Shown here: positions 7,221 to 33,085 of the stretch, one piece after another
Layout: each line of letters starts with the position of its first letter
How positions within the stretch are numbered: position 1 is the first letter of the stretch
Source: Acidimicrobiales bacterium
Lineage (GTDB): Bacteria; Actinomycetota; Acidimicrobiia; Acidimicrobiales; SZUA-35
Assembly: GCA_965216205.1 (NCBI GenBank)
Contig: OZ244139.1
Coordinates: forward strand, 3,705,960 to 3,769,959
DNA: 64,000 bases
Direction of reading: 5' to 3'
Position numbers and translations under genes: made by a program
Notes under the pieces: generated by a model
The model's input: only the letters and a program-made list of their open reading frames with translations
What the model was told of the DNA's origin: nothing
The model's database searches: none

Positions 7221-7324
7221 GACGACAACGATAGAGCGGATCGCTCCCGAGATTTTCGTATCTCGGGCCCACTCGGCGAGTCATCAGTGAGGTAGGGCGG
7301 CGCGAACACGGAGGAGCGGAACGG

Positions 7325-8056
7325 ATGCCGGCGAGTGAGACCACGATCGAGCTGCGGTTGCTCGGCGGCTTCGGCTTGACGATCGACGGTGTCGGCGTCG
7401 AGATCACGCCCTCGGCCCAGCGGCTCCTCGCCTTCATCGCACTGACACCGCGCGGCGCGGAGCGGTGCTTCACCGCCTTCCAGCTCTGGCCCGAGCACGA
7501 CGAGCACCGGGCCAAGGCCAACCTCCGCTCGGCGCTCTGGCGGCTGGGCAAGGCATCGCCAGACCTGATCGAGGCCACGAAGTCACGCCTCCGCCTCGCC
7601 GAGGCGGTGTGGGTCGACGTCCGCCACGGGATCGTCGATCTCCAGGTCGCCGCCGGGGATTCGATCGCCGCCTGCACGCTGCCGTTCCAGGAGCTCGATT
7701 CCGACCTCCTCCCCGACTGGTACGACGACTGGCTCACCGTGGAACGGGAGCGCCTCCGCCAATTCAGACTCGGCTCACTCGAAGAGGGTGCGTCCGCTGC
7801 GCTCGAGCGGGGCCGACCGGGCCAGGCCATCCAGTTGGCGCTGGCCGCCCTGAGCATCGATCCGCTGCGGGAGAGCGCCCATCGGCTCGTGGCTGCCGCC
7901 CACATCGAGAACGGCAACCTGGCCGACGCCCGCCGCCAATACGAGCTGTTCGGTGACCTGGCAGGCGCTGAGCTCGGCTGCGGGCCGTCGAAGCTGTTCG
8001 CCGCACTGCTCCGCGAGGCGATCGGCGGCTCCCGACCCGTGCTGGTGGCCGTCTGA
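7325..8056 (+). CDS. SARP/AfsR-type transcriptional regulator (winged-helix plus BTAD)
   Basis: Supported by LRLLGGFGLTIDG.., ..ANLRSALWRL.., and C-terminal BTAD-like helices (..RESAHRLVAAAHIENGNLADARRQYE..). Confidence 0.75.
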   Translation: MPASETTIELRLLGGFGLTIDGVGVEITPSAQRLLAFIALTPRGAERCFTAFQLWPEHDEHRAKANLRSALWRLGKASPDLIEATKSRLRLAEAVWVDVRHGIVDLQVAAGDSIAACTLPFQELDSDLLPDWYDDWLTVERERLRQFRLGSLEEGASAALERGRPGQAIQLALAALSIDPLRESAHRLVAAAHIENGNLADARRQYELFGDLAGAELGCGPSKLFAALLREAIGGSRPVLVAV

Positions 8057-8088
8057 CGCCTACCCGCCGCCGCTCGGCCGGAGCAGCG

Positions 8089-8403
8089 GTGTCCGAGGTG
8101 GCCGTCGCCGTCGGCTACAGCCAGCGTCAACTCCAGCGCCGATCGACCCGCTGGTTCGGCTACGGGCCGAAGCACCTCGCCTCGGTGTGCCGACTACAGC
8201 GAGCACTCTCGCTCGGCCGCGCTGGGCTCTCCGCATCGGATGCGGCCGTAGCGGCTGGCTACGCCGACCAGGCCCACCTGGCCCGCGACGCTCGGCGTCT
8301 CGCTGGCGCGACGTTCACCGAACTGGTCGAGCCGGCCGTCCGTTCGGCTCAGGAAGTCGCGCCTGGCGGGGAGTCCTGGGCGGCGGTCGACAGCGTTGCG
8401 TAG
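8089..8403 (+). CDS. AraC-type HTH domain only (possible gene remnant)
   Basis: ..VGYSQRQLQRR..FGYGPKHLASVCRLQRAL.....AGYADQAHLARDARRLAG.. is the C-terminal HTH_18-like half of AraC regulators. No sensor domain is present. The 3' end overlaps the convergent VOC gene. Confidence 0.45.
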   Translation: MSEVAVAVGYSQRQLQRRSTRWFGYGPKHLASVCRLQRALSLGRAGLSASDAAVAAGYADQAHLARDARRLAGATFTELVEPAVRSAQEVAPGGESWAAVDSVA

Positions 8404-8777
8404 AGGTCGACCGCGTTGCCGTCGGGATCGCGCAGCGTCGCATAGCGCTGGCCCCAAGGTGCATCCCACGGCGCGACGTGCCCGGCGAATCCTTCGGCGG
8501 TCATCGCGGCGTAGACCGCGTCGACCTCGTTCGGTTCGACACAGCGGAACGCCAGGGCGGCCCGATGGCCGCCCGACGGCGGAGTCCAGCCGGGATCGAA
8601 GGACGTGACGACGTCGCGGGTGTCCCACATGATCCGCATCCCGGATGGGAGGGTCGCCTCGACGTGCCCTCCGCCCTCGTCGCTGCTCTCGGGGACGGTG
8701 AGCCCGAGAGCACGGTAGAAGCGAAGGGTGGCGTCGAGGTCGTCGACGACGAACCCGATGGCGTCGAGTAGGGGCAT
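8349..8777 (-). CDS. VOC/glyoxalase family protein
   Basis: MPLLDAIGFVVDDLDATLRFYRALG...RDPDGNAVDLY is the typical VOC fold pattern. The start is ATG 8777. Confidence 0.8.
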   Translation of the reverse strand: MPLLDAIGFVVDDLDATLRFYRALGLTVPESSDEGGGHVEATLPSGMRIMWDTRDVVTSFDPGWTPPSGGHRAALAFRCVEPNEVDAVYAAMTAEGFAGHVAPWDAPWGQRYATLRDPDGNAVDLYATLSTAAQDSPPGATS

Positions 8778-8856
8778 GTTCTCCACGCTACGCCGGCCGA
8801 ACCGATGCGGTCTTTGACGAATCGGACACATCCACCATGACCTCCGACCACGGCGA

Positions 8857-8959
8857 CTGGCAGCAATCCGCACCGCGGGCGGGCGCAGAATCTGCCAGAG
8901 CGAGCCGAGGACCACCACTGGCAGCAATCTGCACCGAGAACGGGCGTGGAATCTGCCAG
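8857..8959. repeat. two tandem copies (61-bp period) of a CTGGCAG...CTGCCAG-ended intergenic element
   Basis: CTGGCAG occurs at 8857 and 8918, and CTGCCAG at 8892 and 8953. This is the same element family as 52433..52539, in the opposite orientation. Confidence 0.7.
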
Positions 8960-8990
8960 AGGCGGAGCGGGCGGCCGGGCTGCTGGCCGG

Positions 8991-10301
8991 TCAGGACGTC
9001 GGTGCGTCCTGGCCCTGGACGACGACCCGGCTCCGGGACAGTGGCCGGGGAGCTGCGGTTCGGGTGCCGGCGGCCACCTTGCGGGCGGGGGTCGGACGTC
9101 GATCTGGTCCCGACGTCGGCTCCGGTCGCGGGAGCCAGATCGTGACGTCGCCACCGTCGCGGCTGACCACGCCGATCGAGCCGGTGTGGGCTTCCATCAG
9201 GGTCCTGGCGATGGCGAGGCCGAGGCCGGCGCCGCCCGGGGCGCTTCGGGCATCGTCGGCCTGGGTGAACCGCTCGAACGCGCGCTCGACGAACGACTCG
9301 GGGAACCCGGGGCCCTCGTCGAGCACGGCGACACGGACCTCGTCGTCGGTCGATCGATCCTCGATCGTGACCACGCCGCTCTCCGGCGAGAAGCGGATGG
9401 CGTTGTCGAACAGGTTCCGCAGCACTCGACCCAGCGCGCCGTCGTCGCCGACGACCCGGATCGGCCCGTCCAGGTCGCTGATGAACCGGACCCCCTTGGC
9501 AGAGGCGAGCGGCTCGACCGCCTCCACCGCCTCGTCGATGAGTTCGGCCAGGTCGAGGTGCTCGTGGTCGAGGGCGAGGCTGCCCGAGTCGGCCCTGGCC
9601 AGCAGGAACAGGTCACCGACGAGGCGTTCGAGGGCCAGGACGTTGCTGCGGATGGCACAGAGGTGGTCGTCGGGATCGCCGACACCGTCGGACAGTCCGT
9701 CGACCGACACGAGGAGAGACGCGAGCGGTGTCCGCAGATCATGACTGAGCGCGCTGACCACGGCCCGCCGTTCCTCGTCGGCGGCCTCCCGCTCGGTCTC
9801 CGCCCGCGCCAGCGACCGGTTCAGCTCGTCGACCGTTGCGGCCAGGCGACCGATCTCGTCGTCGCGGTCGATCTCGGTCCTCGTCGAGCGGTCACCCCGG
9901 GCAACCGAATCCACGGCCTTTGCGATCACGCCCAGATCACGGGCGATCGGCCGGGCCAGCCGGAGACCTACGACGATCGCGGCCGCGCCGGAGCAGGCGG
10001 CCACGAGCAGGGCGTACCAGATGTCGCGACCCGACAGGGTCATCGCCCCGGTGCCGATCAGGCTCGCCAGGATCGCGAGCGCCGGGCCGATCAGGGCGAG
10101 GGCCGGCACGCCGTAGCGGAGCGGGAGCCGACGCATGACGGGCGGGAGGACCACGGCCGCCACGACCGACACGACGATCACGGCGGTGACGAACAGCGCC
10201 ACCGACGGTCCGTCCTCCATGACCGGCGACGCGGTCGCCGCGACCGATGACAGTGCTCCCGGTGACAGTGCTCCCGATGACAGTGCTGCGGGCGAGATCA
10301 C
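8991..10301 (-). CDS. sensor histidine kinase (TM, HAMP, HisKA, HATPase)
   Basis: It has the H-box LSHDLRTPL and N/G boxes (..NLFDNAIRF.., ..GGAGLGLAI..). The start is uncertain: GTG 10301 or ATG 10220. Confidence 0.85.
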   Translation of the reverse strand: MISPAALSSGALSPGALSSVAATASPVMEDGPSVALFVTAVIVVSVVAAVVLPPVMRRLPLRYGVPALALIGPALAILASLIGTGAMTLSGRDIWYALLVAACSGAAAIVVGLRLARPIARDLGVIAKAVDSVARGDRSTRTEIDRDDEIGRLAATVDELNRSLARAETEREAADEERRAVVSALSHDLRTPLASLLVSVDGLSDGVGDPDDHLCAIRSNVLALERLVGDLFLLARADSGSLALDHEHLDLAELIDEAVEAVEPLASAKGVRFISDLDGPIRVVGDDGALGRVLRNLFDNAIRFSPESGVVTIEDRSTDDEVRVAVLDEGPGFPESFVERAFERFTQADDARSAPGGAGLGLAIARTLMEAHTGSIGVVSRDGGDVTIWLPRPEPTSGPDRRPTPARKVAAGTRTAAPRPLSRSRVVVQGQDAPTS

Positions 10302-10349
10302 CGCGCCATTCTCCCATGGATCGGTGACCGGCTCCGGGCGGCGTCGGTC

Positions 10350-11051
10350 TCAACCATCGAACCGATAGCCGATCCCGTAGACGGTGACGATGTGATCGGG
10401 GGTGCCGGGATCGTCCTCGATTGCTCGACGCAGCCGCCGGACGTGCACCGTCACGGTGCCGGGATCCTGCCACTCCGAGCTGGAGCCCCAGACGTCGCGG
10501 AGCAGATCCTGGCGGCTCATGACCTCCCCGGGGGTCGACGCCAATCGCACGAGCAGGTCGAACTCCTTCGGTCGCAGCTCGATCATCTCGCCCGCCTTCG
10601 TGACCTGGCGCGAGGCGACCTCCACCCGGACGTCGCCGAACTCGATGACAGGCGGGCCGGACGGACGGGACCGTCGCAGCACCGCCCGGACCCGAGCTGC
10701 GATCTCCCGAGGCGAGGCGGGCTTCGCCACGTAGTCGTCGGCGCCGAGCTCGAGACCGGCGACCCGGTCGGGTTCCTCGCCACGGGCACTGAGCAGGATG
10801 ACCGGCACCTCGTCGCCGCCGGCCCGCAGCCGCTGGAGCACCTCGAGGCCGCTCACCTCGGGCAGCATCAGATCCAGCACGACGGCGTCGGGCCGCTTCA
10901 CCCCGAGCTCCACGAGCGCCTGCTTGCCGTCGGCGGCCGAGCGGACCGAGAACCCCTCCCGCTCGAGATACGTGGCCACGACCTCCCGAACGTGCGGCTC
11001 GTCGTCGACGATCAGGACGTCGGGCTTCGGGCCGGCGGACACGCTGGTCAC
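10350..11051 (-). CDS. OmpR-family response regulator
   Basis: The receiver domain reads VLIVDDE...DLMLP...ADDYVAKP and is followed by a winged-helix output (..YGIGYRF). The start is a GTG at 11051 or 11042. Confidence 0.85.
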   Translation of the reverse strand: MTSVSAGPKPDVLIVDDEPHVREVVATYLEREGFSVRSAADGKQALVELGVKRPDAVVLDLMLPEVSGLEVLQRLRAGGDEVPVILLSARGEEPDRVAGLELGADDYVAKPASPREIAARVRAVLRRSRPSGPPVIEFGDVRVEVASRQVTKAGEMIELRPKEFDLLVRLASTPGEVMSRQDLLRDVWGSSSEWQDPGTVTVHVRRLRRAIEDDPGTPDHIVTVYGIGYRFDG

Positions 11052-11241
11052 GGTAGCCGCCGACCCAGGACCGGGTGTCGACCACGATCCGTCGGAGCCA
11101 TCGGAGCGCCGGAGCACGGGCATCATGGCCCCACCGAACCACACCCCCGCTCGGGATCGTCCGGCCGCAGCGAGAGTTCACGACCCGTTAAGGATCGCAA
11201 CGGTGCCCGCCGATGTTCGACGACCAGCGGTGAGGATCGTT

Positions 11242-11778
11242 CTACGGGTTGGACCAGCGGCCGGTCGAACGGAGGTGATCGACGACCAGCGGCAGGGCGA
11301 GCTGGCGGGAGTCTGGGCAGACGTCCCGCCCGTCGAGCCAGCCGTCGATCTCGGCCAGCGGGACACGGTCCACGGCCACCACTTCGCCGTCGTCGAAGTG
11401 GAGGTCACCGTCGTGGATCGCCACGAACACCCGGCCGACGACGCGACCGTCAGCGGCGTCGTAGGCCACGTCGCCGAGGTCGACGAGGTCGACCCCCCGG
11501 ACGCCTGCCTCCTCGGCCAGTTCCCGTCGGGCGGCATCCTCCCAGGCCTCCCCCACCCCGGCGATGCCGCCGAAGGCGAGATCCCAGTACGACGGATAGA
11601 CGTCCTTCCAGTCGGCCCGCTGGTGCACGACCAACTCGCCGGCAGTGGTGGCGACCACGACGTAGGTGCAGCGATGGCGGAGGTTGCCCGCCCGGATCTC
11701 ACCCCGCGTCACGACGTCGATCACGGTGCCGTCGACCTCGACGACCTCGACGAGCTCGGTGGAGGGATCGCCAGGCAC
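11242..11778 (-). CDS. NUDIX hydrolase
   Basis: It carries the Nudix box GGIAGVGEAWEDAARRELAEEAGV. Confidence 0.85.
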   Translation of the reverse strand: MPGDPSTELVEVVEVDGTVIDVVTRGEIRAGNLRHRCTYVVVATTAGELVVHQRADWKDVYPSYWDLAFGGIAGVGEAWEDAARRELAEEAGVRGVDLVDLGDVAYDAADGRVVGRVFVAIHDGDLHFDDGEVVAVDRVPLAEIDGWLDGRDVCPDSRQLALPLVVDHLRSTGRWSNP

Positions 11779-11791
11779 GGCTCGTCGGTCG

Positions 11792-13009
11792 TCAGCTCAG
11801 CGCATCGCGCACCTCGGCCGCCGGTGATCCCGAGGCGATGTGCTGGCGGGCGAGGATGGCTTGACGGGGCCGGTTCCAGCAGAGCGCGCCGGTGACGTTC
11901 CCGTCGTCGTCGAGGTAGATCTGAGCGAACCGGTGCTCCTCGTGCGTGCCCTGCAGCAGTTCGACGTTCGGGGCGGGCACACCGGCGAGCTGGATCTTGC
12001 GGTCGTACTGGTCCGACCAGAACCACGGGACGGGCTCGTAGGGCTCGACGCTCGAACCAGCGGCGTGAGCCAGCAGCCGCTTCGCCCCGTAGCCCCCCAT
12101 CTCGACGGCGTTGTCCCACTGCTCCACCCTCGTGAGCCGACCCCCGAAGCGCCGGTTCGGCCACCGGGCGACGTCACCGACCGCCACCACCCCCGGCGCG
12201 GCGAGGCAGGTCTCGTCGGTCACCACCCCGTCGTCGAGGGTGAGGCCGGCGCCTTCGAGCCACTCGGTGTTCGGGGTCACGCCGATCCCGACGACGGCCA
12301 CCGACGCGTCGATCGTCGTCCCGTCGTCGAGCTCGACCGCCCGGAGGCGGCCGGTGTCGTCGGTGGCGACACCGGCCACACCGGTCCCGAGCCGGACATC
12401 CACGCCGTGGCTTCGATGCAGGTCGGCGATCGCCATCCCGGCCGCTTCGTCGAGGACCCTGGTGAGCGGTGCCGGCGCCGCCTCGATGATGGACACGTCG
12501 AGGCCCCTCGTCCTGGCCGACGCCGCCACCTCGGCCCCGATGAACCCGCAGCCGATCACGACCACCCGGTCGGGGCCCCGCTCGAGGTCGGCCTTGAGGG
12601 CGGTGGCGTCGTCGAGAGTGCGGAGGAGGTGAACGCCGGCGACGGCGGCGCCGGGAAGGGTCCGGGGCCGGGCTCCCGTGGCGATGATCACGCCGTCGGC
12701 CGCGATCTCCCGGCCGTCGTCGAGACTGACCGTGCCGCCGCTCGACCCGTCGGACAGCGCGAACCCGACGGCCGATCGGCCGAGCTCCCAGGTGACACCC
12801 AACTCGTCGGGGTCGGCGGCGGGCCGCAGGCGGAGCTTGGCGTCGTCGTAGGGCCCGACGAGCACCTCCTTCGAGAGCGGGGGCCGGTCATAGGGGTAGT
12901 GGGGCTCATCCCCGATGAGCGTCAGCTCACCGCCGTGGCCCTGGCGACGCAGGGTCTGCGCCGCATGGGTGCCGGCCAGCGACGCGCCGACGATCGCGAT
13001 CCGCTCCAC
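11792..13009 (-). CDS. FAD-dependent ferredoxin reductase (pyridine nucleotide-disulfide oxidoreductase)
   Basis: The N-terminus reads IAIVGASLAGTHAA..YDRPPLSKE, and a second Rossmann motif reads VVVIGCGFIGAE. Confidence 0.85.
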   Translation of the reverse strand: MERIAIVGASLAGTHAAQTLRRQGHGGELTLIGDEPHYPYDRPPLSKEVLVGPYDDAKLRLRPAADPDELGVTWELGRSAVGFALSDGSSGGTVSLDDGREIAADGVIIATGARPRTLPGAAVAGVHLLRTLDDATALKADLERGPDRVVVIGCGFIGAEVAASARTRGLDVSIIEAAPAPLTRVLDEAAGMAIADLHRSHGVDVRLGTGVAGVATDDTGRLRAVELDDGTTIDASVAVVGIGVTPNTEWLEGAGLTLDDGVVTDETCLAAPGVVAVGDVARWPNRRFGGRLTRVEQWDNAVEMGGYGAKRLLAHAAGSSVEPYEPVPWFWSDQYDRKIQLAGVPAPNVELLQGTHEEHRFAQIYLDDDGNVTGALCWNRPRQAILARQHIASGSPAAEVRDALS

Positions 13010-13019
13010 CGGGCGGCGC

Positions 13020-13217
13020 TCAGTCGACGTCTTCGAGCGTGATCGCCTGCTTCGGGCAGCGCTCGACCGCTTCCTTGACCTTCTCGTGCAGCTCGGCCGG
13101 CGGGTTCTCGTTCAGGACGTAGAGGAAGTCGTCGTCGCGGACCTCGAACACCTCTGGTGCGATGGCCATGCACACGGCGTTGCTCTCACACAGATCGAAA
13201 TCGACGACGACTTTCAT
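13020..13217 (-). CDS. small single-cluster ferredoxin (P450-partner type)
   Basis: This 65-aa protein has C..AVC...CP motifs (DLCESNAVCMAIAPEVF...ERCPKQAI). Confidence 0.85.
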   Translation of the reverse strand: MKVVVDFDLCESNAVCMAIAPEVFEVRDDDFLYVLNENPPAELHEKVKEAVERCPKQAITLEDVD

Positions 13218-13302
13218 GGTCCGCTCCGTTCGCTCGGTGGTTCGCCGACCCCCAGGGCGGGTCGCCTCGGCTCGGCGCTGCTCGCCGGTGAGGGTAGTCC
13301 GA

Positions 13303-13992
13303 TCAGACCTCAGCGGCGAGGCGGAGAACCTCGTCCGGATCGAAGAAGCCGCGCCAACCCTGGATCGGCGCGCCCCGCGGGTCGACGAGGATGGCCGTGG
13401 GCTGTCCGGTGATCTCGTAGTAGATCCAGCTCGCGAACGTCTCGTCCCAGATCATGAGCGGGGTCGTCGCCCCCGTGCTGTCGAGGAAGTCCTCGGCCAG
13501 GGCGAGGCTGTCCTGGGCGCCCATGCCGACCACCCGCACCTCGTCGCCGTGCTGCTGAGCGAACTGCTCAACGGCCGGGCCCTCGGCCCGGCAGACGGGT
13601 CAATGCGGCGCCCAGAACCACAGGAGCACGGGCCGGTCGCCACCGCCGAGCTCGTCGGCCAGGTTGAGCGTGGAGCCGTCGGCGATGTCGACCACCTCGA
13701 GATCGGGGAAGAAGTTCTCCACCGGGGCGTCGTCGTCCGCCGAGTCGTCATCCGCCGACGCACCCTCGTCGGACCTGCCGGCCTCAGAGCCGTCAGCGGA
13801 TTCGTCATCGGCCGGTCCACCGTCGGCGGGGGCAGCGACGGTGGACGCGGACTCGGAATCCTGCGCCGTCGCTGCACCGGTGGCTTCGTTCGGCTCGGTG
13901 GCGTCGCTACCGCACGCGGCGGCCGACACGGCCACCGCCACGATGCTTGCGACGAGCCTGCGGCGTGGTCGAGCGCGTAGTATTTCGGGCAT
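13303..13992 (-). CDS. TlpA/ResA-like thioredoxin-fold lipoprotein interrupted by one in-frame TGA (13602..13600) at the first Cys of the CxxC motif: selenoprotein candidate or pseudogene
   Basis: ORFs 13600..13992 and 13303..13539 share one frame. Read through, the product is lipobox AVSAAAC, an acidic linker, ..LLWFWAPH-TGA-PVCRAEGP.., then ..GQPTAILVD.. (cis-Pro loop). Confidence 0.6.
13574..13592 (-). other. SECIS-like hairpin candidate downstream of the in-frame TGA
   Basis: The mRNA reads UGA CCCGUCU GCCGGGCC GAG GGCCCGGC. That is a perfect 8-bp GC stem starting 7 nt after UGA, with a G-initiated apical loop. Confidence 0.4.
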
Positions 13993-14236
13993 GGCGTGTC
14001 CTAACCGACCGGTGGTGCGGCTGATTCCGCCCCGTGGGAAGTCCCTGGGTGGCCGCTCTTGGCAACGTATCGATCCTCGTGTCGTCGCCGTCGCCGTCGA
14101 TCTGAACAAGTCATGAACCCTGTCGCGAGCATCGGGCGGCGACCGGCCGTCGTCCGACAGACTGGTTGAGGAGCCAACGTCGAGGAGACCGACCCATCGG
14201 ACCAGCCGAGAATGGAATCGTCGACCTGCGAACCGG

Positions 14237-15925
14237 ATGGAGAGTGCAGTGACCGCAACCGATGAGCCAACGGGCGAGAGCGCTCCCGCCGTGGAACGGA
14301 CCCGGGGCGATGGGTCCGGTGGTGGCGAACCGACGATCTCGGCGTTCCGCGCCGGGTTCGCCGGTCTCCTGGCCGGCGCCGCGGCCCTCAGCGCCGGCGA
14401 GCTGGTCGCCTCGCTCTTCGCACCGCGGCCGGGCCCGGTGATCGCAGTCGCCAACCGGGTGATCGACTACGCGCCGTCGTGGTTCATCGAGTTCGGCAAG
14501 GCGGTCTTCGGACTGGCCGACAAGCCGGCGCTCGTGCTCGGCACGGTGATCATCGCGCTGATCCTCGCCACCGGCTTCGGCGTGGCCGCCAGGCGCCGGG
14601 CCCGCATCGGTGTCTACGGGATCGGCGGCTTCGGCCTGCTCGGCATGCTCGCCATCGCGGGCGATGCACAGGCCGGCTGGGGCACCGCGATTCCCGTGTC
14701 GGTCATCGCGGTGCTCGCCGGTGTCGTCACCCTGTTCTGGCTCCTGAGGCGAGGCGGTGGCAGCCCGGCAGGCGCGTCGTCACCGGTCGATGGCGCCGAT
14801 CCCGGCGTGTCGGTCGTGACCGACTCGCCGACCGACCCCGCCCTGACCCGGCGGAGCTTCCTGAACGTCGCCGGTGCGGTCGGCGCCTCAGCTGCCATCG
14901 CCGCCGCCGGTGCCAACCTGATCCGGTCGAGGAGCACCGCCAGCGACGCCCGTGACGCGGTGGAGCTCGACTCGCAGTTCGCCGGCACGAACCTGCAGGC
15001 CGATCTGGCGGCGGCCGAGTCGAGCACGGTCGCTGGAACGCCTGGCATCACCCCACTCGTCATTCCCAACGACCGGTTCTACGAGATCGACACCGCCATC
15101 CTGAAGCCGCAGGTCGATCCCGCCAACTGGCAGCTCACGATCGGTGGCATGGTCGAGCGCGAGGTCAGCTACACCTACGACCAGTTGCTCGATCGGGCGA
15201 ACCTGGTCGAGCCGGTCACCCTGTCCTGTGTCTCCAACGAGGTCGGCGGCGACCTCGTCGGCAACGCGATCTGGCAGGGCGTGGCCCTCACGGAACTGCT
15301 CGACGAGGCCGGCGTCCTCGACGGCGCCACCCAGATCGCCAGCCGCTCGGTCGACGGCTGGACCTGTGGCTTCCCCACCGAGCTCGCCTACGACGGGCGG
15401 ACGGCGATGGTTGCGATCGCCATGAACGATGAGCCGCTCCCGGTCAACCACGGTTTCCCCGCCCGGCTCGTCGTCTCCGGGTTGTACGGCTACGTGTCGG
15501 CCACCAAGTGGGTCTCGGAGATCCGGCTGACCACCCTGGAGGCATTCGACGGCTACTGGATCCCGAAGGGCTGGTCGAAGCTGGGACCGGTCAAGACACA
15601 GTCGAGGATCGACACCCCCCGTCTGGGCACGCCGGTCACCGCCGGGGAGGTGGTGCCGATCGCCGGCGTCGCCTGGGCCCCGAACATCGGCATCGAACGG
15701 GTCGAGGTGCAGATCGACTCCGGCGAGTGGCAGGAAGCCGAGCTCGGTGTGTCGCTCGGGAGCAACGCCTGGCGTCAGTGGGTGCTGCCCTGGACCGCCG
15801 AGGAGGGACGCCACGTGATCCGGGTGCGGGCCACCGACGCCAGCGGCTACACCCAGACCTCGGACATCACCCCGCCGGCTCCGAGCGGCGCAACCGGCTG
15901 GCACCAGATCACCGTCACTGCCTGA
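14237..15925 (+). CDS. molybdopterin-dependent oxidoreductase (sulfite-oxidase/MsrP-like fold) with N-terminal multi-TM region
   Basis: After the TM segments comes a Tat-like RRSFLN motif, then ..ITPLVIPNDRFYEID.., ..LSCVSNEVGG.. and a C-terminal Ig-like dimerisation part. Confidence 0.8.
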   Translation: MESAVTATDEPTGESAPAVERTRGDGSGGGEPTISAFRAGFAGLLAGAAALSAGELVASLFAPRPGPVIAVANRVIDYAPSWFIEFGKAVFGLADKPALVLGTVIIALILATGFGVAARRRARIGVYGIGGFGLLGMLAIAGDAQAGWGTAIPVSVIAVLAGVVTLFWLLRRGGGSPAGASSPVDGADPGVSVVTDSPTDPALTRRSFLNVAGAVGASAAIAAAGANLIRSRSTASDARDAVELDSQFAGTNLQADLAAAESSTVAGTPGITPLVIPNDRFYEIDTAILKPQVDPANWQLTIGGMVEREVSYTYDQLLDRANLVEPVTLSCVSNEVGGDLVGNAIWQGVALTELLDEAGVLDGATQIASRSVDGWTCGFPTELAYDGRTAMVAIAMNDEPLPVNHGFPARLVVSGLYGYVSATKWVSEIRLTTLEAFDGYWIPKGWSKLGPVKTQSRIDTPRLGTPVTAGEVVPIAGVAWAPNIGIERVEVQIDSGEWQEAELGVSLGSNAWRQWVLPWTAEEGRHVIRVRATDASGYTQTSDITPPAPSGATGWHQITVTA

Positions 15926-15953
15926 TCCTCGATCGGCCGTCCGACCACACCGC

Positions 15954-17216
15954 TCAGGGCAGGAACGCCGTCGGGTTGGTCGGTGTGCCGTCGTGGCGGA
16001 TCTCGAAGTGGAGGTGGTTGCCGGTGGCGGTTCCCGTGGCACCGACCAGGCCGACGATGTCGCCCCGCTGCACGACCGCGCCCTCCGCTGCGTTGATCTG
16101 GCTCATGTGGGCGTAGAGGCTGCTGAGGCCATCGCCGTGATCGACGATCACGGTCTGCCCGTACCCGCCGCGGTAGCCGGCGAAGATCACCACCCCGTTG
16201 GTTGTGGCGGCGATCGGAGTTCCCCGGGGTGCGCCGATGTCCAACCCGGTGTGGAGCTTCCGGGTGCCGTAGACGGGATGCACCCGATAGCCGTAGGGGC
16301 TGGTGACCGTTCCGTTGATCGGCCACTGGTAGCCGAGCGCCGACGGCTCCCGGGGTAGTGGCGTGGCCGGCGCCGGGGTGGCAGCGGACCCGGAGCGGCC
16401 CTGGTTGATGAGCCGCTGGATGGCCTCGTCCTCGGCGGCATAGGCCGAGAGCTCGCTCTCCCAGCGGGCGATCCGGGCCTGGGCCTCCGAGCGCAATCTG
16501 AGCTGCACGGCCTCCTGCTCGCGGAGCTGCTCGAGCTCGGCCTGGAGCTCGGCCTCGATCGCCGCCGCGTCGCGCTCGGCCTCCTCGGCCTCGAGCTGGG
16601 CCACCCGTCGATCCTCGTAGATGCCCCGCAGGTGTTCCAGGAGGTCGGCGGTCGAGGTGTTCGCCTGCTCGAGCAGTTGGGTCTGGCGAACTGCCCGGTT
16701 CATGTTGCGATCGGTGAAGAACACGCCGGGATCGTCGTCGCCGGTCTTGAACCCTTCGACGGCCTGGGCCAGGAGTTTCTCCTCGATCGACGCCTGCTCC
16801 TCATCCGACGCCGCCAGCTCGACGGATGCGGTCTCCAGCGTGCTGCGGGCGACATCCAACCGGCTGCGCGCGGCGTCGATCTTCGACTGCGTCTCCTGGG
16901 CCGTCTCGTTGATGGCCTGCAACCCGGCGAGGATCTCCTCGTCGGCCGCTCTCGCTTCGTTCAGGTTGCCGGCGGCTGCCGCCCGGCGGCGACGATCCTC
17001 GGCGCTGAGCGTCGTCGGCGTCGCCATGCTCGTCGTGGCCGATTCGTCCTCGACGGTGGTGGAGCTGTCATCGGCCGGTGCCGTCGTCGTGGTCTCGGCC
17101 CCTGACGGGAACACCGACGCAGCGATCGCCAGCGCCACCACGGCCGCGACCAGCGACGGTGCCCGCCCCGATCGTCTCCGATTCCTGATTTCGCTTCGAC
17201 GCGCCGATGCGTCCAC
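15954..17216 (-). CDS. M23 family metallopeptidase with coiled-coil N-terminal region
   Basis: The C-terminus has ..HTGLDIGAPRGTPI..GQTVIVDHGDGLSSLYAHM..GNHLHFEI... GTG 17216 has a GGAG 6 nt upstream. Confidence 0.85.
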   Translation of the reverse strand: MDASARRSEIRNRRRSGRAPSLVAAVVALAIAASVFPSGAETTTTAPADDSSTTVEDESATTSMATPTTLSAEDRRRRAAAAGNLNEARAADEEILAGLQAINETAQETQSKIDAARSRLDVARSTLETASVELAASDEEQASIEEKLLAQAVEGFKTGDDDPGVFFTDRNMNRAVRQTQLLEQANTSTADLLEHLRGIYEDRRVAQLEAEEAERDAAAIEAELQAELEQLREQEAVQLRLRSEAQARIARWESELSAYAAEDEAIQRLINQGRSGSAATPAPATPLPREPSALGYQWPINGTVTSPYGYRVHPVYGTRKLHTGLDIGAPRGTPIAATTNGVVIFAGYRGGYGQTVIVDHGDGLSSLYAHMSQINAAEGAVVQRGDIVGLVGATGTATGNHLHFEIRHDGTPTNPTAFLP

Positions 17217-17419
17217 GCTGCTCCGCCTGAGTTCCGTGTTCGAGGCCGTCTCGGGATCCAACCGGCTACCCCTCCGAAGTGGAACGACACGAGGCCGACA
17301 TCGGACTGTAATGGCTAGCGGCCGAAGATGGAACCTCGCCCGACCAGTAGGGTCGAGCGAGGTCGCGCACCAACGTCCCAACCCCACGTCTCAACGAGCG
17401 CGACGACAGAGGAGCAGCG

Positions 17420-17935
17420 GTGAACGAAGCGGTCGACCCCGAACGCGAGACCCTGGACTGGGCGACCTATGGGCGGGCGGTGAGAGAACTCGCCCAGCAG
17501 GTCGCCGACAGCGGATTCCGCCCCGACATCATCCTCGCGATCGCACGGGGTGGGCTGTTCGCGGCCGGATCGCTCGGCTACGCCCTCTCCGTGAAGAACC
17601 TGTTCGTCATGAACCTGGAGTTCTATACCGGCGTCGGCGAGCGGCTCGATATGCCTGTTGTTCTCCCACCCTATCTGGACAAGCTTGATCTCACAGACGC
17701 ACGAATACTTGTCGTTGATGATGTCGCCGACACCGGGCATACGCTGAAAGTAGTTCATGAATTCTGCCAAGACGTTGTCTCCGAAAGTATGACCGCCGTA
17801 CTCTATGAGAAGTCACACTCGGTGGTGAAGGCGGACTTCGTTTGGAAGCGAACGGACCTCTGGATCAATTTTCCCTGGTCAACCGAGCCTCCAGTGGTGG
17901 AAGAGCCCGGCAAGGAAAGCGTGCGAGAAGCATAA
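17420..17935 (+). CDS. phosphoribosyltransferase (purine PRT-like)
   Basis: It carries the PRPP-binding loop ILVVDDVADTGHT. The 3' half has markedly lower GC (see findings). Confidence 0.8.
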   Translation: MNEAVDPERETLDWATYGRAVRELAQQVADSGFRPDIILAIARGGLFAAGSLGYALSVKNLFVMNLEFYTGVGERLDMPVVLPPYLDKLDLTDARILVVDDVADTGHTLKVVHEFCQDVVSESMTAVLYEKSHSVVKADFVWKRTDLWINFPWSTEPPVVEEPGKESVREA

Positions 17936-18009
17936 GCCGCAACAAGCATGGCCATATAGAGCAAATTCGGGGGATGTTCTTTTAGTCCATTTCATCTATT
18001 GTTGATGGG

Positions 18010-20043
18010 ATGGAGGCCACTGCAATGATCAAGCGGATTGTTTCTGGAGTATTCCTACTGATCGCGCTCGGCGCCCTCGGTCTGATCCTGGCCGGCGCGC
18101 TCACGAGTGGTGAACAGTTGATCGTGCGGTTCCTCACCGCGATCGTCGTCGCCTCGCTGTGTCTGTACGTCATCAGCGACCTGCGACTGCACGCCGACGA
18201 CAACGCCGCCAGGTCGTCTGCCCGCCGCCCGCCCACCGAAGCCGCGACGCGACGCGGCCCTGCGCCGAACGCGCTCCCTCCGAACAGCACCGCGGCGTTC
18301 ATGGCAACCGTCACCGGCAAGCGCTCGGCGAACACCTCCAGTCGCCTCGCTCCCTCCGCCGATGGCGAGGCCGCGTTCCCGTCGGACGCCGCTGACCGGG
18401 CCGACGCCCCGGGATTCGCCGGTGTGGGGTCGGCCTGGGTCGACGCCGCGACCGGGACGTCCGACGGCGAGGCCGACGGTGACCACGAAAGTGACGGTCG
18501 GCACGCCCCCGAGCACCCAGCGGCCACCGTTGCGCCCGGCTCGACCTCCGCCTATGCCGACGACGACGTCGACGCCGGCGAGTGGCCCCACCTCCCGGTC
18601 CAAGCGGCACCAGCGGATGAGCGCCGCAAGCATGGCCTCGCGACGATCTTCACCCCACAGGACGGGGAGGAGGCAGCAGACACCGAGTTCGAGGAGGCCC
18701 CACAGGCGCTCGCAGCGAACGACCACTATCGCCCGCCGATCGCTCCCCGATACCCCACGCCGAACCTCACCTCGATCACCGGCGGAGCGTTCAGCACCCA
18801 CAGCGACGCTGCGGCGGCCGACGAGCCAGCGACCGACCGGCCATCGACCGACGATGACGGCGCAGACGACGAGGGCACGGACGAGCCGGCCAACCGGTCG
18901 GTGAACGCCGAACCCAGCGCTGCGGTGAGCGACCACGCCGACGCTGCCGTGCACGTTCCCGACGCCGAGCACGTTCCAGACGCCGAGCACGTTGCCGGCG
19001 CCGACCAGGTCGGCGCTGCCGAGCACGGCGATGCGACCGACGATGTCCGGATCGACGAACCGCACGCCGACGATCACACCGGCGACGATCACCCGGACGA
19101 TCTGCTCGGCGATGAGGCGTACGACGACGAAGCCTGGGAAGGCGTCGACGGGCTGCACGCCGACGACGCGACCCTGGAGCACGAGCGGGCGGCCGACCAT
19201 GCTGCCGCCGACGACGAGGACACCGGCGACCACGACGACACCATCGGTGGCGAGTGGGTGACCGATGACGGGTGCGCGAGCGATGACGGGTGGGTGAGCG
19301 ACGTCGATGCCGATGCCGACCGGGTGAGCGGTGCGGTCATCGACGACGAGCGCGCCGGCGACGATACCGGGTCCTGGGCCGACGAGGACGACGCCGCCGA
19401 ACAGGTGGCCGCGGCGTCCGCCCTCGGCGAGGCGGACGGACCGTCCGATGACCTCGCTGCCGAGGGAACCCGGGCCGACGCCGACCTCGACGAGATCGAG
19501 TCGATGACCGCCATGGCCGCCGAGCCCGAGACCGGATCGACCCCGGCGCTCCAGGCCACATCCGGGCTGGAAGCGGCAGCGCAGGCAAGGGCTCGGGTGA
19601 TCGAACTACTCGCCGGCGAGCACGGGGCGAGCGAGCTGGAAGCCGCCATCGAAGCAGGCGAGCTCGAGACAATCAGCTCGCTCATGGCCGACGGCACCCT
19701 GTCCACCAGGGGACCGATCTCCGACCACGACGTGCGAACGATGGTGTTCGTGGCGTTCACGTCGAACGAGCTGCGGAAGATCCTGCTCGCAGGCGGCCGG
19801 CTCGACGGCGAGTTCGATCGCTTCGAGTTGGACACGGCCGACTCGTTCAGCAGCGACGGCGTGCTCGACCCTGACACCGACAGCCCAGCGGATCTCCCGC
19901 CGGCCGTGCTGGCCGCATCCGAGGCCGCAGCCACCAATGGCTCGGAAGTCGATGAGCGCGACTCGGCCACGGCAGGCGACACCCCCGACTTCGACCGCGA
20001 GCCCCTCCCGACCGGCCGGCACCAGCCGGTCACCGCCCGCTGA
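18010..20043 (+). CDS. membrane-anchored, highly acidic Asp/Ala-rich low-complexity protein, function unknown
   Basis: Two N-terminal TM helices are followed by about 450 aa of D/A/E-rich sequence with short repeats (HVPDAEHVPDAEHV). The final ~150 aa are more ordinary in composition. Confidence 0.5.
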   Translation: MEATAMIKRIVSGVFLLIALGALGLILAGALTSGEQLIVRFLTAIVVASLCLYVISDLRLHADDNAARSSARRPPTEAATRRGPAPNALPPNSTAAFMATVTGKRSANTSSRLAPSADGEAAFPSDAADRADAPGFAGVGSAWVDAATGTSDGEADGDHESDGRHAPEHPAATVAPGSTSAYADDDVDAGEWPHLPVQAAPADERRKHGLATIFTPQDGEEAADTEFEEAPQALAANDHYRPPIAPRYPTPNLTSITGGAFSTHSDAAAADEPATDRPSTDDDGADDEGTDEPANRSVNAEPSAAVSDHADAAVHVPDAEHVPDAEHVAGADQVGAAEHGDATDDVRIDEPHADDHTGDDHPDDLLGDEAYDDEAWEGVDGLHADDATLEHERAADHAAADDEDTGDHDDTIGGEWVTDDGCASDDGWVSDVDADADRVSGAVIDDERAGDDTGSWADEDDAAEQVAAASALGEADGPSDDLAAEGTRADADLDEIESMTAMAAEPETGSTPALQATSGLEAAAQARARVIELLAGEHGASELEAAIEAGELETISSLMADGTLSTRGPISDHDVRTMVFVAFTSNELRKILLAGGRLDGEFDRFELDTADSFSSDGVLDPDTDSPADLPPAVLAASEAAATNGSEVDERDSATAGDTPDFDREPLPTGRHQPVTAR

Positions 20044-20072
20044 GCGCCCGCCGAGCCAGGTCAGTCAGGGCG

Positions 20073-21338
20073 TCATTTGTAGGAGGCCTGCGATTCCTTC
20101 CAGGAACCCCCGTCGGCCCGGGGTTCCTTCGGCAGGCCGAGCACCCGCTCGCCGATGATGTTGCGCTGCACCTCGGAGGTGCCCGCGTAGATCGTGCCCG
20201 GCCGGGCGACGAGGAAACTGCTCATCCAGTTGGCCGGGGTGTTCTCGATGCCGATCGCGGGAGCGCCGATGCCGACCCTTGTCTCGTCGCCGAACCCGAC
20301 CATGCCGTCGGCCCCCATCATGTTCATCGCCGCTTCGGTGATGCGGTGGTGATGGTGGCTCCAGAAGAGCTTGCCGATCGATGACTCGGGTCCTGGCTGC
20401 TGCCCCGCGAGGAACCGGGTGAGGGCCTGCATCCCCCGGTACTTCATGATCTGGACGGTCGTGTAGAAGCGGGCGATGTCCTGCCGGACGAGGGGGTCGT
20501 CGATCTTGCCCTGCTTGCGGGCCATGTCGACGAAGAGCTCGTACTCCGCGCCGAACGACAACGCCGTGGTGGTGGCGCCGACCCCGCGCTCGTAGCCGAG
20601 GAGGGTGTTGCCCACCGCCCACCCGTTGTTGACCCCGCCGAGCACGTTGTCCTTGGGACAGGTGGCGTCGGTGAAGAACACCTCGTTGAAGTGGTCGTGA
20701 CGGGCGATGTTGGTGATCGGCCGCATCTCCACGCCGGGCTGCTCGGTCGACATGAGCAGGAAGGAGATCCCCTTGTGCTTCGGCACGTCGGGATCGGTCC
20801 TGGCGAGGACGAAGATCATGTTGGCGGTCTGGCCGCTGGAGGTCCAGATCTTCTGGCCGTTCACGATCCACTGATCACCGTCGAGCTCGGCCTTGCAGCC
20901 GAGGTTGGCGAGGTCGGAGCCGGCGTTGGGCTCGGAGTAGCCCTGGCACCAGACGTCCTCCCCGGACAGGATCCGCGGGATGAAGTGCTGCTTCTGCTCC
21001 TCGGAGCCCCAGGCCAGGATGGTGTTGCCCACCATCCCGATGCTGAACCCATCGTTGGGGCCCGACGTCGGCACACCGCGCTTGGCGAACTCCTCGTTCA
21101 TGACGACCTGTTCCAGGTGGGTCAGTCCCCCGCCCCCGTACTCGGCCGGCCAGTTGGGCGCGAGGAGCTTGTTGTCGCGCAACGTCTCCCGCCACTCGTT
21201 CTGGAACCGGGTTCTGGCTTCACCGTCGAGCGCGCCGATGCCCTGCCAGTTGCTCGGCAGGTACTCGTCGAGGAAGGCGGTGATCTTCTCGCGGTACTGC
21301 TCGGTCTCCGGTGGATAGGTCGGTTGCATGGGCACCAC
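20073..21338 (-). CDS. acyl-CoA dehydrogenase
   Basis: The ACAD pattern runs full length (..GYSEPNAGSD..WTS..; C-terminal ..IYAGTSEVQRNII..). Confidence 0.9.
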   Translation of the reverse strand: MVPMQPTYPPETEQYREKITAFLDEYLPSNWQGIGALDGEARTRFQNEWRETLRDNKLLAPNWPAEYGGGGLTHLEQVVMNEEFAKRGVPTSGPNDGFSIGMVGNTILAWGSEEQKQHFIPRILSGEDVWCQGYSEPNAGSDLANLGCKAELDGDQWIVNGQKIWTSSGQTANMIFVLARTDPDVPKHKGISFLLMSTEQPGVEMRPITNIARHDHFNEVFFTDATCPKDNVLGGVNNGWAVGNTLLGYERGVGATTTALSFGAEYELFVDMARKQGKIDDPLVRQDIARFYTTVQIMKYRGMQALTRFLAGQQPGPESSIGKLFWSHHHHRITEAAMNMMGADGMVGFGDETRVGIGAPAIGIENTPANWMSSFLVARPGTIYAGTSEVQRNIIGERVLGLPKEPRADGGSWKESQASYK

Positions 21339-31254: not shown

Positions 31255-31390
31255 GGCGGCCTTCCGGTGGGGTCGCGGCGCGAGGACGTGTGAACTCGCG
31301 GTATCGGCGCCCGACGGCCGGCCCTTGAGCGGGCTGTGGCACCGGTAGGTGGTAGTGACCGGGCGAGATCGGCTCGGCTACCGTCGCGAC

Positions 31391-32440
31391 ATGCTGATCG
31401 AACGGATCGAATCGAAGTGGATCGACGCCTTCGCCGCGACATTCGAGATGTGCGGCGTCGGCTCGGGCGACGTGTGCGCCGTGCTGTCGGAGAGCCAGAG
31501 TCGGGAGATCAATGTTCAGCTCAGCGAGCTCGCCCTGCAACGGCTCGGGGCGCAGGTCTTCCACGTCCGTATCCCCACGCCGGCCCAGACCGCCCCGGTG
31601 CCCATCCGATCCACCGGGGCGTCCGACGCGATCGGCGGGATCCAGCCGGTGATCGCGGCGCTGGCGTCGTCGACGCTGGTGGCCGACTGCACCGTGGAGG
31701 GTCTCCTCCACGCCCCCGAGCTGCCGGCGATCCTCGGCGACGGCGCCCGGGTGCTGATGGTGTCGAACGAGCATCCCGAGCTCCTCGAGCGCATGCGGCC
31801 CGATCCCGCGCTCGAGGAGCGGGTGAAGCTCGGCACGAAGATGCTCCGGGCGGCGGAGACGATGACGGTTACCTCCCCGGGCGGGACCGACCTCACGATC
31901 GACGTGGCCAAGGCACCCGCCGGTTCGAGCTGGGGCTACACGGCCCGCCCGGGGACGATCGCCCACTGGCCGGGCGGGCTGTGCCTCTGCTTTCCCGCCG
32001 CAGGCTCGGTCAACGGCACCCTCGTGCTCGACCACGGCGACGTGAACCTCACGTTCAAGCGGTACATGGAGTCGCCGGTGCGGCTGACGATCGTCGACGA
32101 CTACATCACCGACATCGAGGGCGACGGGCTCGACGCCGCCCTCATGACCAGCTACTTCGAGGCCTGGGGCGACAAGGAGGCCTACGCGGTGTCGCACGTG
32201 GGTTGGGGCATGAACACCGCGGCGCGGTGGGACGCGCTCACCATGTACGACAAGTCACAGGTGAACGGCACCGAGCTTCGGGCCTTCGGCGGCAACTTCC
32301 TCTACTCGACCGGCGCCAACGAGGTGGCCGGGCGACACACGCTCGGCCACTTCGACCTGCCGATGCGGCGCTGCACCGTCGCGCTCGACGGTACCGATGT
32401 GGTGACCGACGGGGTGCTCCAGGGCGACCTCGCCCCCTGA
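31391..32440 (+). CDS. M29/aminopeptidase-T-like fold protein (2,5-dihydroxypyridine dioxygenase NicX-like)
   Basis: Overall similarity by eye to the NicX / leucyl aminopeptidase-T family (..HVGWGMN..GNFLYSTG..H.D). The assignment is moderate. Confidence 0.6.
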   Translation: MLIERIESKWIDAFAATFEMCGVGSGDVCAVLSESQSREINVQLSELALQRLGAQVFHVRIPTPAQTAPVPIRSTGASDAIGGIQPVIAALASSTLVADCTVEGLLHAPELPAILGDGARVLMVSNEHPELLERMRPDPALEERVKLGTKMLRAAETMTVTSPGGTDLTIDVAKAPAGSSWGYTARPGTIAHWPGGLCLCFPAAGSVNGTLVLDHGDVNLTFKRYMESPVRLTIVDDYITDIEGDGLDAALMTSYFEAWGDKEAYAVSHVGWGMNTAARWDALTMYDKSQVNGTELRAFGGNFLYSTGANEVAGRHTLGHFDLPMRRCTVALDGTDVVTDGVLQGDLAP

Positions 32441-32524
32441 CCGGCGTCTGCGTCGCGGACGGGTGTGCCGGGCTGCTGCGGTGCGCCGTCCGGATCGACA
32501 TGGCGTGGCCTAGTGTTGTCGGCC

Positions 32525-33085
32525 ATGAACAACTCGGCATCCCGGCTCGTGCTGATGGGCCTCGGTATCGGCACCGTGCTCGCGCTGCTCGGCTGGCTGG
32601 CGTTCGGCTTCTTCGGGATCCAGGCGGCCTTCACCGACACCGAGGTCGACGAGGGCGGACCGGTGTTCGCCAGCGAGGCCGAGGAGGCCGAGTTCGACGA
32701 GGCGATGGAGGAGGCGGAGGCAAACCCCACCGAGACCGACGAGGACATGCCGGAGACCGAGGCCGAGGCCGAGATCGTGACGGTCGCCAGCGGGACCTTC
32801 ACCGGGGTGTCCCGCTACGACGTGTCCGGCGACGCCCTGGTGCTGAACGACGGCACCGAGCAGCGATTCCTCCGCCTCGAGAACTTCGAGTCGTCGAACG
32901 GTCCGGATCTGAACGTGTACCTGCGGGCCGAGGACGGGAGCTTCGTCGACCTCGGTGACCTGAAGGGCAACATCGGCGACCAGAACTACGAGATCCCGAC
33001 CACGGTCGATCTCGAGGTCCACAACAAGGTGGAGATCTGGTGCGTCCGCTTCGACGTGGAGTTCGGGAACGCCGTGCTCAGCTGA
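32525..33085 (+). CDS. membrane-anchored DM13 domain protein
   Basis: An N-terminal TM and an acidic linker precede ..G.F.G.....SG.A.......R.LRLE.F....GPDL.VYL... and a C-terminal IWC..F... motif typical of DM13. Confidence 0.65.
   Translation: MNNSASRLVLMGLGIGTVLALLGWLAFGFFGIQAAFTDTEVDEGGPVFASEAEEAEFDEAMEEAEANPTETDEDMPETEAEAEIVTVASGTFTGVSRYDVSGDALVLNDGTEQRFLRLENFESSNGPDLNVYLRAEDGSFVDLGDLKGNIGDQNYEIPTTVDLEVHNKVEIWCVRFDVEFGNAVLS

Follow-up and report, generated by a model that had tools for sequence, protein, structure and literature searches.

Gene Layout and Predicted Product

We analyzed a 64,000-nucleotide stretch of DNA from an Acidimicrobiales bacterium (contig OZ244139.1, positions 3,705,960 to 3,769,959; hereafter the window, whose numbering is used throughout), in which a minus-strand gene for a thioredoxin-like lipoprotein carries an in-frame TGA at the position of a catalytic cysteine. 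An earlier sequence-only reading of the window had proposed that two half-length open reading frames (ORFs), lying in the same frame and split only by this TGA, are really one gene of 229 codons for a secreted protein with selenocysteine (Sec, U) at the first position of a UxxC redox motif. Translation reproduced this arrangement: the minus strand from 13992 to 13303 is a single frame of 229 sense codons in which the TGA at 13602..13600 is the sole internal stop (Table 1), and a Shine-Dalgarno-like AGGA precedes the ATG by 6 nt. The product begins MPEILRARPRRRLVASIVAVAVSAAAC-GSD..., continues through an acidic linker and then reads ...RPVLLWFWAPH-*-PVCRAEGPAVEQF...GQPTAILVDPRG..., where the asterisk marks the TGA; a lipoprotein signal is thus followed by an acidic linker and a thioredoxin-like domain, in the order that had been described.

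The protein has a single hydrophobic segment, at residues 12-29, and an [AS]-A-C-G lipobox motif is retained in 16 of 16 N-terminal homologue fragments. Judged by this motif, the protein is most likely exported, outward facing, and lipid-anchored at Cys27. Similar acidic linkers occur in the homologues with varying length and sequence, and the linker presumably acts as a flexible tether. Toward the C terminus, the Gln-Pro motif (Q109 and P110 of the family alignment) is invariant and aligns with the QP of Mycobacterium tuberculosis DsbF; by its place in the fold, the proline at residue 198 is predicted to be in the cis conformation.

Table 1. Coordinates of the predicted selenoprotein gene, its RNA elements, and the divergent neighboring gene
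Feature	Position	Strand	Description
Complete predicted selenoprotein gene	13303..13992	-	229 sense codons including one Sec codon; ATG 13992..13990; terminal TGA 13305..13303
Signal peptide with lipobox (predicted)	13912..13992	-	RARPRRR charged start, hydrophobic core, ...AVSAAA-C27-GSD; Cys27 codon 13914..13912
Acidic low-complexity linker	13723..13911	-	D/E/S/A/T-rich; ~residues 28-90, about 60 residues
Thioredoxin-fold (TlpA/ResA/DsbE-like) domain	13306..13722	-	Residues ~91-229; Pfam, weak NCBIfam, and PDB matches
In-frame TGA, predicted Sec codon	13600..13602	-	Residue 131; first (attacking) position of the UxxC redox motif
TGC, second (resolving) Cys of UxxC	13591..13593	-	Residue 134; invariant in alignments
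CCC, Pro of the conserved Gln-Pro motif	13399..13401	-	Residue 198; thioredoxin-fold cis-proline loop position
Hairpin 1, GCCGGGCC-GAG-GGCCCGGC	13574..13592	-	Perfect 8-bp GC stem; 7 nt past the TGA; 15 nt from UGA to loop
Hairpin 2, conserved SECIS-like stem-loop, GUUGAGC-AGUUC-GCUCAGC	13554..13572	-	Loop 13565..13561; 34 nt after the UGA
Membrane-anchored molybdopterin oxidoreductase, divergent neighbor	14237..15925	+	562 aa; Pfam Oxidored_molyb, 4.5e-38

Conservation of the TGA Codon and Selection Downstream

Relatives of the gene were collected by a protein search, which returned 19 homologues, and by a family-alignment scan of GTDB species-representative genomes, which returned 64 loci, none of them from the source genome; for three of the protein homologues, the underlying DNA was also used. 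Sixteen of the 19 protein homologues end exactly at ...WFWAPH, indicating that, across many independent assemblies, gene calling ended at this one codon; two others carry ...WFWAPHCSTC..., and the remaining one is a downstream piece. In the NCBI annotation, members of the family appear as short or truncated hypothetical proteins. The sequence-only reading had suggested aligning orthologues to see whether they carry TGA or a cysteine codon at this position, and the alignment contains both. TGA is present at the first redox codon in 42 distinct genes, namely the window gene and 41 genes on 36 other contigs (mostly from Acidimicrobiia, about 34 of them from GTDB species-representative genomes), and TGC or TGT is present at the same codon in 29 distinct orthologues, giving the Sec/Cys pairing typical of such sites; TAA and TAG were found in none. 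That 41 other genes have an identical TGA here places the feature far beyond chance, and the TGA is kept down to ~40% protein identity.

The sequence downstream of the TGA behaves as coding sequence. Some 94-104 codons remain open past the TGA in nearly all TGA genes, and in 36 pairs from the ten closest TGA genes, the median ratio of nonsynonymous to synonymous substitution rates (dN/dS) over codons 18-98 after the TGA is 0.31 (range 0.11-0.54). Between the window gene and its closest relative, L001, dN/dS is 0.36 downstream of the TGA and 0.32 upstream. TGA terminates 37 of the 49 coding-like segments in the window and is therefore its main stop codon, so the genetic code is not reassigned.

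The window has two further places where a TGA alone separates segments in one frame, and both were considered as recoding candidates and rejected. The one at ~10350 on the minus strand (window 8991..11177) is an ordinary boundary between genes for an OmpR-type response regulator and a histidine kinase, and that at ~32440 on the plus strand (window 31349..33085) is likewise an ordinary boundary between two unrelated genes, with no recoding. Within the family, the TGA form at L003 (9698-10690, plus strand; also L004) lacks the acidic linker and has an extra C-terminal extension of ~130 residues with no recognized domain; at L003, it adjoins a transposase fragment (rve_3) and an AbiEii toxin gene. 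A TGA copy at L063:6118-6400 (plus strand; L063a), whose downstream RNA element scores 91 bits in the covariance model described below, has an apparent frameshift ~35 codons past the TGA, which points to a decaying paralogue or else to an indel error in a metagenome-assembled genome (MAG) from long reads.

Stem-Loops 3′ of the TGA

Two stem-loops follow the TGA in the coding sequence. The sequence-only reading had noticed the first, a GC hairpin with a GAG loop 7 nt past the TGA, and had called it compatible with a bacterial Sec insertion sequence (SECIS). The hairpin is indeed present at 13592..13574 (hairpin 1) and has a predicted stability of -17.8 kcal/mol on its own, and a 71-nt stretch folds better than its shuffled counterparts (z = -2.4). 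The mean stability of this region is -13.8 kcal/mol in Sec forms as compared with -6.6 kcal/mol in Cys forms. Its register, however, shifts among sequences, with only 72.9% of cells paired in a fixed register, and it is absent from the RNAalifold consensus structure. Cys forms, too, have weaker versions of hairpin 1, as R-A-E-A/G-P is encoded in GC-rich genomes by self-complementary codons. The published bacterial SECIS (bSECIS) consensus has a 3-9-nt loop with G (then usually G/U) in its first two positions, a 4-16-bp stem, a distance of 16-37 nt from the UGA, and a minimum free energy of -7.5 or lower (PMC13188914). With its shifting register, its place outside the RNAalifold consensus, and its 15-nt spacing just outside the 16-37-nt range, hairpin 1 is not supported as the conserved SECIS; it is probably a spacer or helper structure.

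The element that is conserved, covarying, and specific to Sec forms is instead the stem-loop at 13572..13554 (hairpin 2). Its consensus, GUYGAGC-RGUUY-GCUCRRC, is present in 42 of 42 TGA forms and in 0 of 29 Cys forms, and RNAalifold independently predicts exactly this helix. In the alignment, 90.8% of cells are paired, as opposed to ~30% in controls in which the pairing was slid, and at four pairs both partners vary. At pair 36-50, which is intact in every sequence, 32 members have C-G and 10 have U-A; the pair ties a synonymous Val change (GTC/GTT) to an exchange of Arg and Gln (CGA/CAA) throughout the 42. In a distant member of the family, L068 (...FLVYATSG-U-PAC...), two further pairs are swapped with full compensation, and the loop is retained as GGUUC. 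Covariation of the hairpin, which had been put forward as a check on the original assignment, is thus borne out by compensatory changes for hairpin 2; for hairpin 1, RNAalifold recovers no consensus structure. Hairpin 2 also includes GCT, a rare codon for Ala in a genome of 70% GC, and synonymous divergence is 0.31 in the 17 hairpin-carrying codons vs. 1.14 in the rest of the gene. A covariance model gives 63-91 bits for typical TGA forms, 42.9 bits for the distant L068, and ≤35 bits for Cys forms. At 89 bits, the window element is the third best overall, and the model found no second copy in the window, where the best other match reached 18 bits (E=0.12).

Hairpin 2 also lies within the bSECIS consensus, with a loop of AGUUC (G and U at positions 2-3), a stem of 6-7 bp, a distance of 34 nt, and a stability of -10.4 kcal/mol. 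Because hairpin 2 fits this consensus and hairpin 1 falls just outside it, we assign the SECIS core to hairpin 2 and infer that SelB would bind there rather than to hairpin 1. The arrangement resembles the bSECIS of the bSECISearch model (Escherichia coli fdhF type), in that an intra-ORF stem-loop lies just 3′ of the UGA. Unlike that model, the window has a very stable GC hairpin between the UGA and hairpin 2, which pushes the spacing out to 34 nt.

Relation to Known Thioredoxin-Like Proteins

For the comparison with Pfam, we used the window protein with Cys substituted for the internal stop. Redoxin matches residues 93-181 (35.5 bits vs. a gathering cut-off of 26.6) and AhpC-TSA (PF00578) matches residues 93-207 (34.6 vs. 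26), and Thioredoxin_8 (28.4 vs. 27) and Thioredoxin (27.4 vs. 23.5) also pass. All four matches span the TGA, so neither half-ORF alone holds a complete domain, in agreement with the earlier view that neither is a complete fold. The best PDB sequence match is M. tuberculosis DsbF (3IOS; E=4.8e-16 over 106 residues); M. tuberculosis DsbE/Mpt53 (1LU4) also matches (E=1.7e-8), and after these two come ResA, CcmG, and TlpA. DsbF WFWAPWCPTCQGEAP aligns with WFWAPH[U]PVCRAEGP of the window protein and sets the TGA opposite the first Cys of the DsbF CPTC motif, in keeping with the earlier placement of the TGA at the first redox cysteine. Against the NCBIfam equivalogs for ResA, DsbE (CcmG), and TlpA (NF002854, NF011941/TIGR00385, and NF047696), the window protein scores far below the cut-offs (38.5 vs. 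170, 38.3 vs. 359, 37.9 vs. 123, and 33.9 vs. 230) and is therefore not an equivalog of any of them.

Like the window protein, M. tuberculosis DsbF (Rv1677) and DsbE/Mpt53 (Rv2878c) are actinobacterial, extracytoplasmic, and built on a single thioredoxin-like domain, and all have in common the motif WFW-x-P-x-[C/U]-P-x-C-x-x-E-x-P and the QP loop. The window protein differs in having Sec in place of the first Cys (as predicted here), His for the Trp just before it, and the long acidic linker. In vitro, DsbE and DsbF are oxidants that fold reduced hirudin, and DsbD (Rv2874) or Rv2877c has been proposed as their membrane partner (PMC3853704). By sequence, we place the window protein in the DsbE/DsbF type; of the features expected of an extracytoplasmic oxidant, it shows the predicted export signal and the lipobox. 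With ResA, CcmG (DsbE), and TlpA, it has in common the TlpA-like thioredoxin fold, tethering at the outer face of the membrane, and a CxxC-type site, whereas the genomic context differs in that no cytochrome c maturation genes adjoin the window gene.

Among known selenoproteins, the closest parallels in principle are the UxxC families annotated as Prx-like thiol:disulfide oxidoreductase (PF00578) and thiol:disulfide interchange protein (PF13098), which likewise have Sec at the first CxxC position, a secreted or periplasmic thioredoxin fold, a SECIS within the coding sequence, and Cys orthologues. These two families have been described by Zhang et al. 2006 (PMC1794560) and in PMC13188914 and are known mostly from anaerobic Deltaproteobacteria (PMC1794560). 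The window family is unlike them in being centered on Acidimicrobiia, in its WFWAPH-U motif, and in having its own SECIS; it is set apart from them by their published descriptions.

Selenocysteine Machinery in the Lineage

We looked for Sec-insertion genes in related genomes as well as in the window. At L043, an Acidimicrobiales MAG, a selB fragment scoring above the TIGR00475 cut-off adjoins a Cys-form orthologue; this partial and divergent selB (L043:1-950, minus strand) lies next to the Cys form together with its CcdA-like partner, an adjacency that may be due to chance. Searches for SelB used two queries, a 297-aa fragment and a full-length profile built from 19 sequences; these gave >4,000 and ~8,000 matches, respectively. 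Many of the matches among those listed are named SelB and come from Acidimicrobiales, Ilumatobacteraceae, and Acidimicrobiaceae MAGs. Moreover, selA-selB operons are present on three MAG contigs (L069:8670-11188, L070:8554-11722, and L071:8724-11719) in a conserved neighborhood. Upstream of the operon are genes for FxsA, a metallo-beta-lactamase-fold protein, a trypsin-like protease, and a class A penicillin-binding protein, and downstream are WhiB, NfeD, and two ArsA-like ATPases. The called SelB of L069 has 395 aa, compared with ~572 aa elsewhere, and may be truncated. All four sel genes have been reported throughout Actinomarinales, within the class Acidimicrobiia (bioRxiv 10.64898/2026.04.03.716425). 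Judged by its gene content, the lineage decodes Sec.

As a candidate for tRNA-Sec, we considered a 91-nt "tRNA-Thr (cgt)" predicted by ARAGORN at L069:12276-12366 (minus strand), ~1 kb downstream of selB. It lies inside a called ORF, Rfam finds neither a tRNA nor a tRNA-Sec there, and it is probably a false positive.

Interpretation and Alternative Explanations

The conserved TGA, the Cys orthologues, the selection on the sequence downstream, and the covarying hairpin confined to Sec forms together argue for a selenoprotein and against a pseudogene. We consider it highly likely that the gene encodes a genuine UxxC selenoprotein, a membrane-tethered, extracytoplasmic thiol-disulfide oxidoreductase of the DsbE/DsbF type with the active-site motif WFWAPH-U-PVC. 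The preference of the sequence-only reading for a secreted UxxC selenoprotein over a pseudogene therefore gains support from all four lines of evidence and from selA and selB in the lineage, and its premise that UxxC thioredoxin-like selenoproteins form a known and often mis-annotated class is borne out by the families described in PMC1794560 and PMC13188914.

In the mechanism we envisage, the UGA at 13602..13600 would be decoded by Sec-tRNA(Sec) delivered by SelB, which would in turn be recruited by the stem-loop within the coding sequence; the core of this signal would be the 6-7-bp hairpin at 13572..13554 with its A/G-G-U-U-Y loop, and the GC-rich hairpin at 13592..13574 may serve as spacer or helper. 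The product would be exported and lipid-anchored at Cys27, with the acidic linker holding the enzyme off the membrane. There, the selenol could attack substrate disulfides or form selenenylsulfide bonds with substrate thiols, and Cys134 would resolve the intermediate. The lipid anchor, the redox direction, and the substrates in this scheme are predictions.

Several observations weigh against a selenoprotein. Hairpin 2, at 34 nt from the UGA, comes close to the maximum of 37 nt in the consensus, and the Rfam SECIS families gave no match at gathering score or at E≤10. The lack of an Rfam match is usual for bacterial SECIS elements. None of selA, selB, selC, or selD is present in the 64-kb window, where the only tRNA gene is one tRNA-Ala. 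Probes for E. coli SelA, SelB, and SelD also found no match in the window; these were approximate sequences, of which only the SelB probe was validated, through L043. The source contig is absent from the best 120 of >4,000 and the best 120 of ~8,000 SelB matches, tRNA-Sec was found neither in the window nor in any fetched locus, and selD was found in none of the fetched loci. Finally, no curated NCBIfam selenoprotein family was matched at E≤0.01, including the HUIPC-motif family (NF047660) and SaoT (NF040730), whose names are taken from a table in PMC13188914. Sec insertion in the window's own genome is a prediction supported by the intact SECIS and by the purifying selection downstream of the TGA.

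No sel gene lies in the window, and bacteria have often lost the Sec trait in the course of evolution (PMC1794560), which would fit a family that is genuinely Sec-containing and a source genome that has lost its Sec machinery, leaving the TGA to terminate translation in a fresh pseudogene. The window copy, however, has acquired no second stop, frameshift, or damage to its 89-bit SECIS, and its dN/dS against L001 is the same downstream of the TGA as upstream; we consider such a loss, which could be only a very recent one, unlikely. An ordinary nonsense mutation in a Cys-containing thioredoxin-like lipoprotein would require only a single TGC-to-TGA change, and the calling of N-terminal pieces as short hypothetical proteins by gene callers and NCBI is what such a pseudogene would look like. 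Independent decay cannot produce the observed pattern, with TGA in 41 other genes and never TAA or TAG, intact downstream ORFs under purifying selection, and a hairpin found only in Sec forms, and we regard a nonsense-mutated pseudogene as very improbable. The same one-base distance between TGC and TGA means that a base-call or assembly error could hide a true TGC codon. Such an error would have had to fall by coincidence in a gene of the Sec type, with a complete hairpin 2 (89 bits, as opposed to ≤35 in Cys forms), an H-U-P-x-C context, and the synteny of a TGA subgroup, and we give it very little credence.

Sequence analysis alone cannot identify the inserted residue, and the TGA might be decoded otherwise, by reassignment to Trp or Gly, by near-cognate read-through, or by insertion of Cys at UGA. 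The use of TGA as the end of most coding-like segments, the two other same-frame TGA junctions that proved to be ordinary gene ends, the position of the codon at a redox Cys with the known pattern of Sec/Cys exchange, and the occurrence of SelA and SelB in the lineage leave such decoding with only a very slim chance. Two separate products, an N-terminal lipopeptide ending at the TGA and a C-terminal piece starting from the GTG at 13539, are almost certainly not the explanation: 13303..13539 is an ORF with a GTG start of the kind that gene callers sometimes call, but neither piece is a complete thioredoxin fold, the Pfam and PDB matches span the junction, and the 20 codons from the TGA to the GTG, including the xxC, are strongly conserved in frame.

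Genomic Context and Evolution

Taking the gene as a selenoprotein gene, its surroundings differ between Sec and Cys forms. The divergently oriented molybdopterin oxidoreductase gene next to it adjoins nine Sec-form loci, all in the window's own subgroup, and no Cys-form locus. On the downstream side, this subgroup has ferredoxin, ferredoxin reductase, and NUDIX genes; the other TGA subgroups are located among unrelated housekeeping genes. The molybdoenzyme has four to five N-terminal hydrophobic segments and a twin-arginine-like TRRSFL just before the catalytic domain, which suggests that it faces outward.

A CcdA-like gene follows the Cys form in 16 Cys-form loci and the TGA form in none. The Cys-form orthologues thus precede a CcdA-like membrane protein, a further likeness to DsbF and DsbE, whereas the TGA forms have no adjacent one. 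The protein (L016:6415-7326, plus strand; L043:1760-2704, plus strand; and 14 other Cys-form loci) has ~300 aa, five to six hydrophobic segments, and two Cys, one in an FNPC motif and one in ...LSCTIP..., and it has no Pfam or NCBIfam match; by its motifs, it looks CcdA/DsbD-like.

In a neighbor-joining tree, the TGA forms make up one broad clade in which a few Cys forms are nested, and a separate large clade contains only Cys forms. The hairpin is common to all TGA forms, and the most economical history is therefore a single change from Cys to Sec followed by diversification, tandem duplications (L017, L022, L023, L040, L057, and L063), and some reversions. Conversion of Cys to Sec is the usual trend for thiol oxidoreductases (PMC1794560). 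At each of the six loci with tandem copies, two to three TGA-form paralogues lie within 0.2-1.6 kb, each with the TGA and hairpin 2; the two copies at L057, ~220 nt apart, have identical 72-nt elements and may be an assembly duplication.

Novelty and Implications

Recoding of this kind is well known and involves no new mechanism, and UxxC thioredoxin-fold selenoproteins and their mis-annotation have long been known. Our literature searches found nothing linking selenoproteins with DsbE/DsbF or describing the window family, for which a prior listing in BSepDB is possible, and on Sec in Acidimicrobiales they found only the 2026 Actinomarina preprint, which is silent on thioredoxin-like families. 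We tentatively raise the possibility, which we hold with well under even confidence, that the genes constitute a cell-surface selenolipoprotein family that is new to the catalogues and literature searched, occurs in the largely aerobic Acidimicrobiia, arose once from a DsbE/DsbF-type Cys enzyme, uses a lineage-specific two-hairpin SECIS, and has become uncoupled from a CcdA-like donor. Were the last point true, the Sec forms may have changed their job, for example to that of an oxidase or to the handling of peroxides or sulfenates, rather than acting as a CcdA-fed reductase; in the window subgroup, the role may be linked to the adjacent membrane-anchored molybdoenzyme.

For annotation, the consequence is immediate, since the gene is now split or truncated in dozens of Acidimicrobiia genomes as short hypothetical proteins ending in ...WFWAPH. 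A corrective rule would be WFWAPH-TGA-xx-TGY followed by GUYGAGC-RGUUY-GCUC. Selenoproteins are considered scarce in Actinomycetota and in aerobes generally. The window gene would add a well-supported selenoprotein to Actinomycetota, one with a reactive selenol outside the cell. This homologue of M. tuberculosis DsbF exists in 42 Sec and 29 Cys forms that differ also in the adjacent CcdA-like gene; together they amount to a natural experiment, and their comparison could show what Sec buys an extracytoplasmic disulfide enzyme. Lastly, the invariant loop and covarying stem provide a clean lineage SECIS that could be used to find other selenoproteins.

Other Observations

Contig JBBQUN010000049.1 (22,370 bp; L014 and L015) was matched in both orientations at mirror-image coordinates (1-11777 and, reversed, 10594-22370), and looks like an inverted-duplication (palindromic) assembly artefact. 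One typical TGA form, L046 (CAVOYE010000010.1), comes from a MAG labeled "uncultured Chloroflexia bacterium" and has the same neighbors as the Acidimicrobiales loci L038 and L057; it may reflect mis-binning or horizontal transfer. Elsewhere in the window, the plus strand at 18010..20043 holds a 677-aa ORF of coding-like composition with no Pfam match at E≤0.05.

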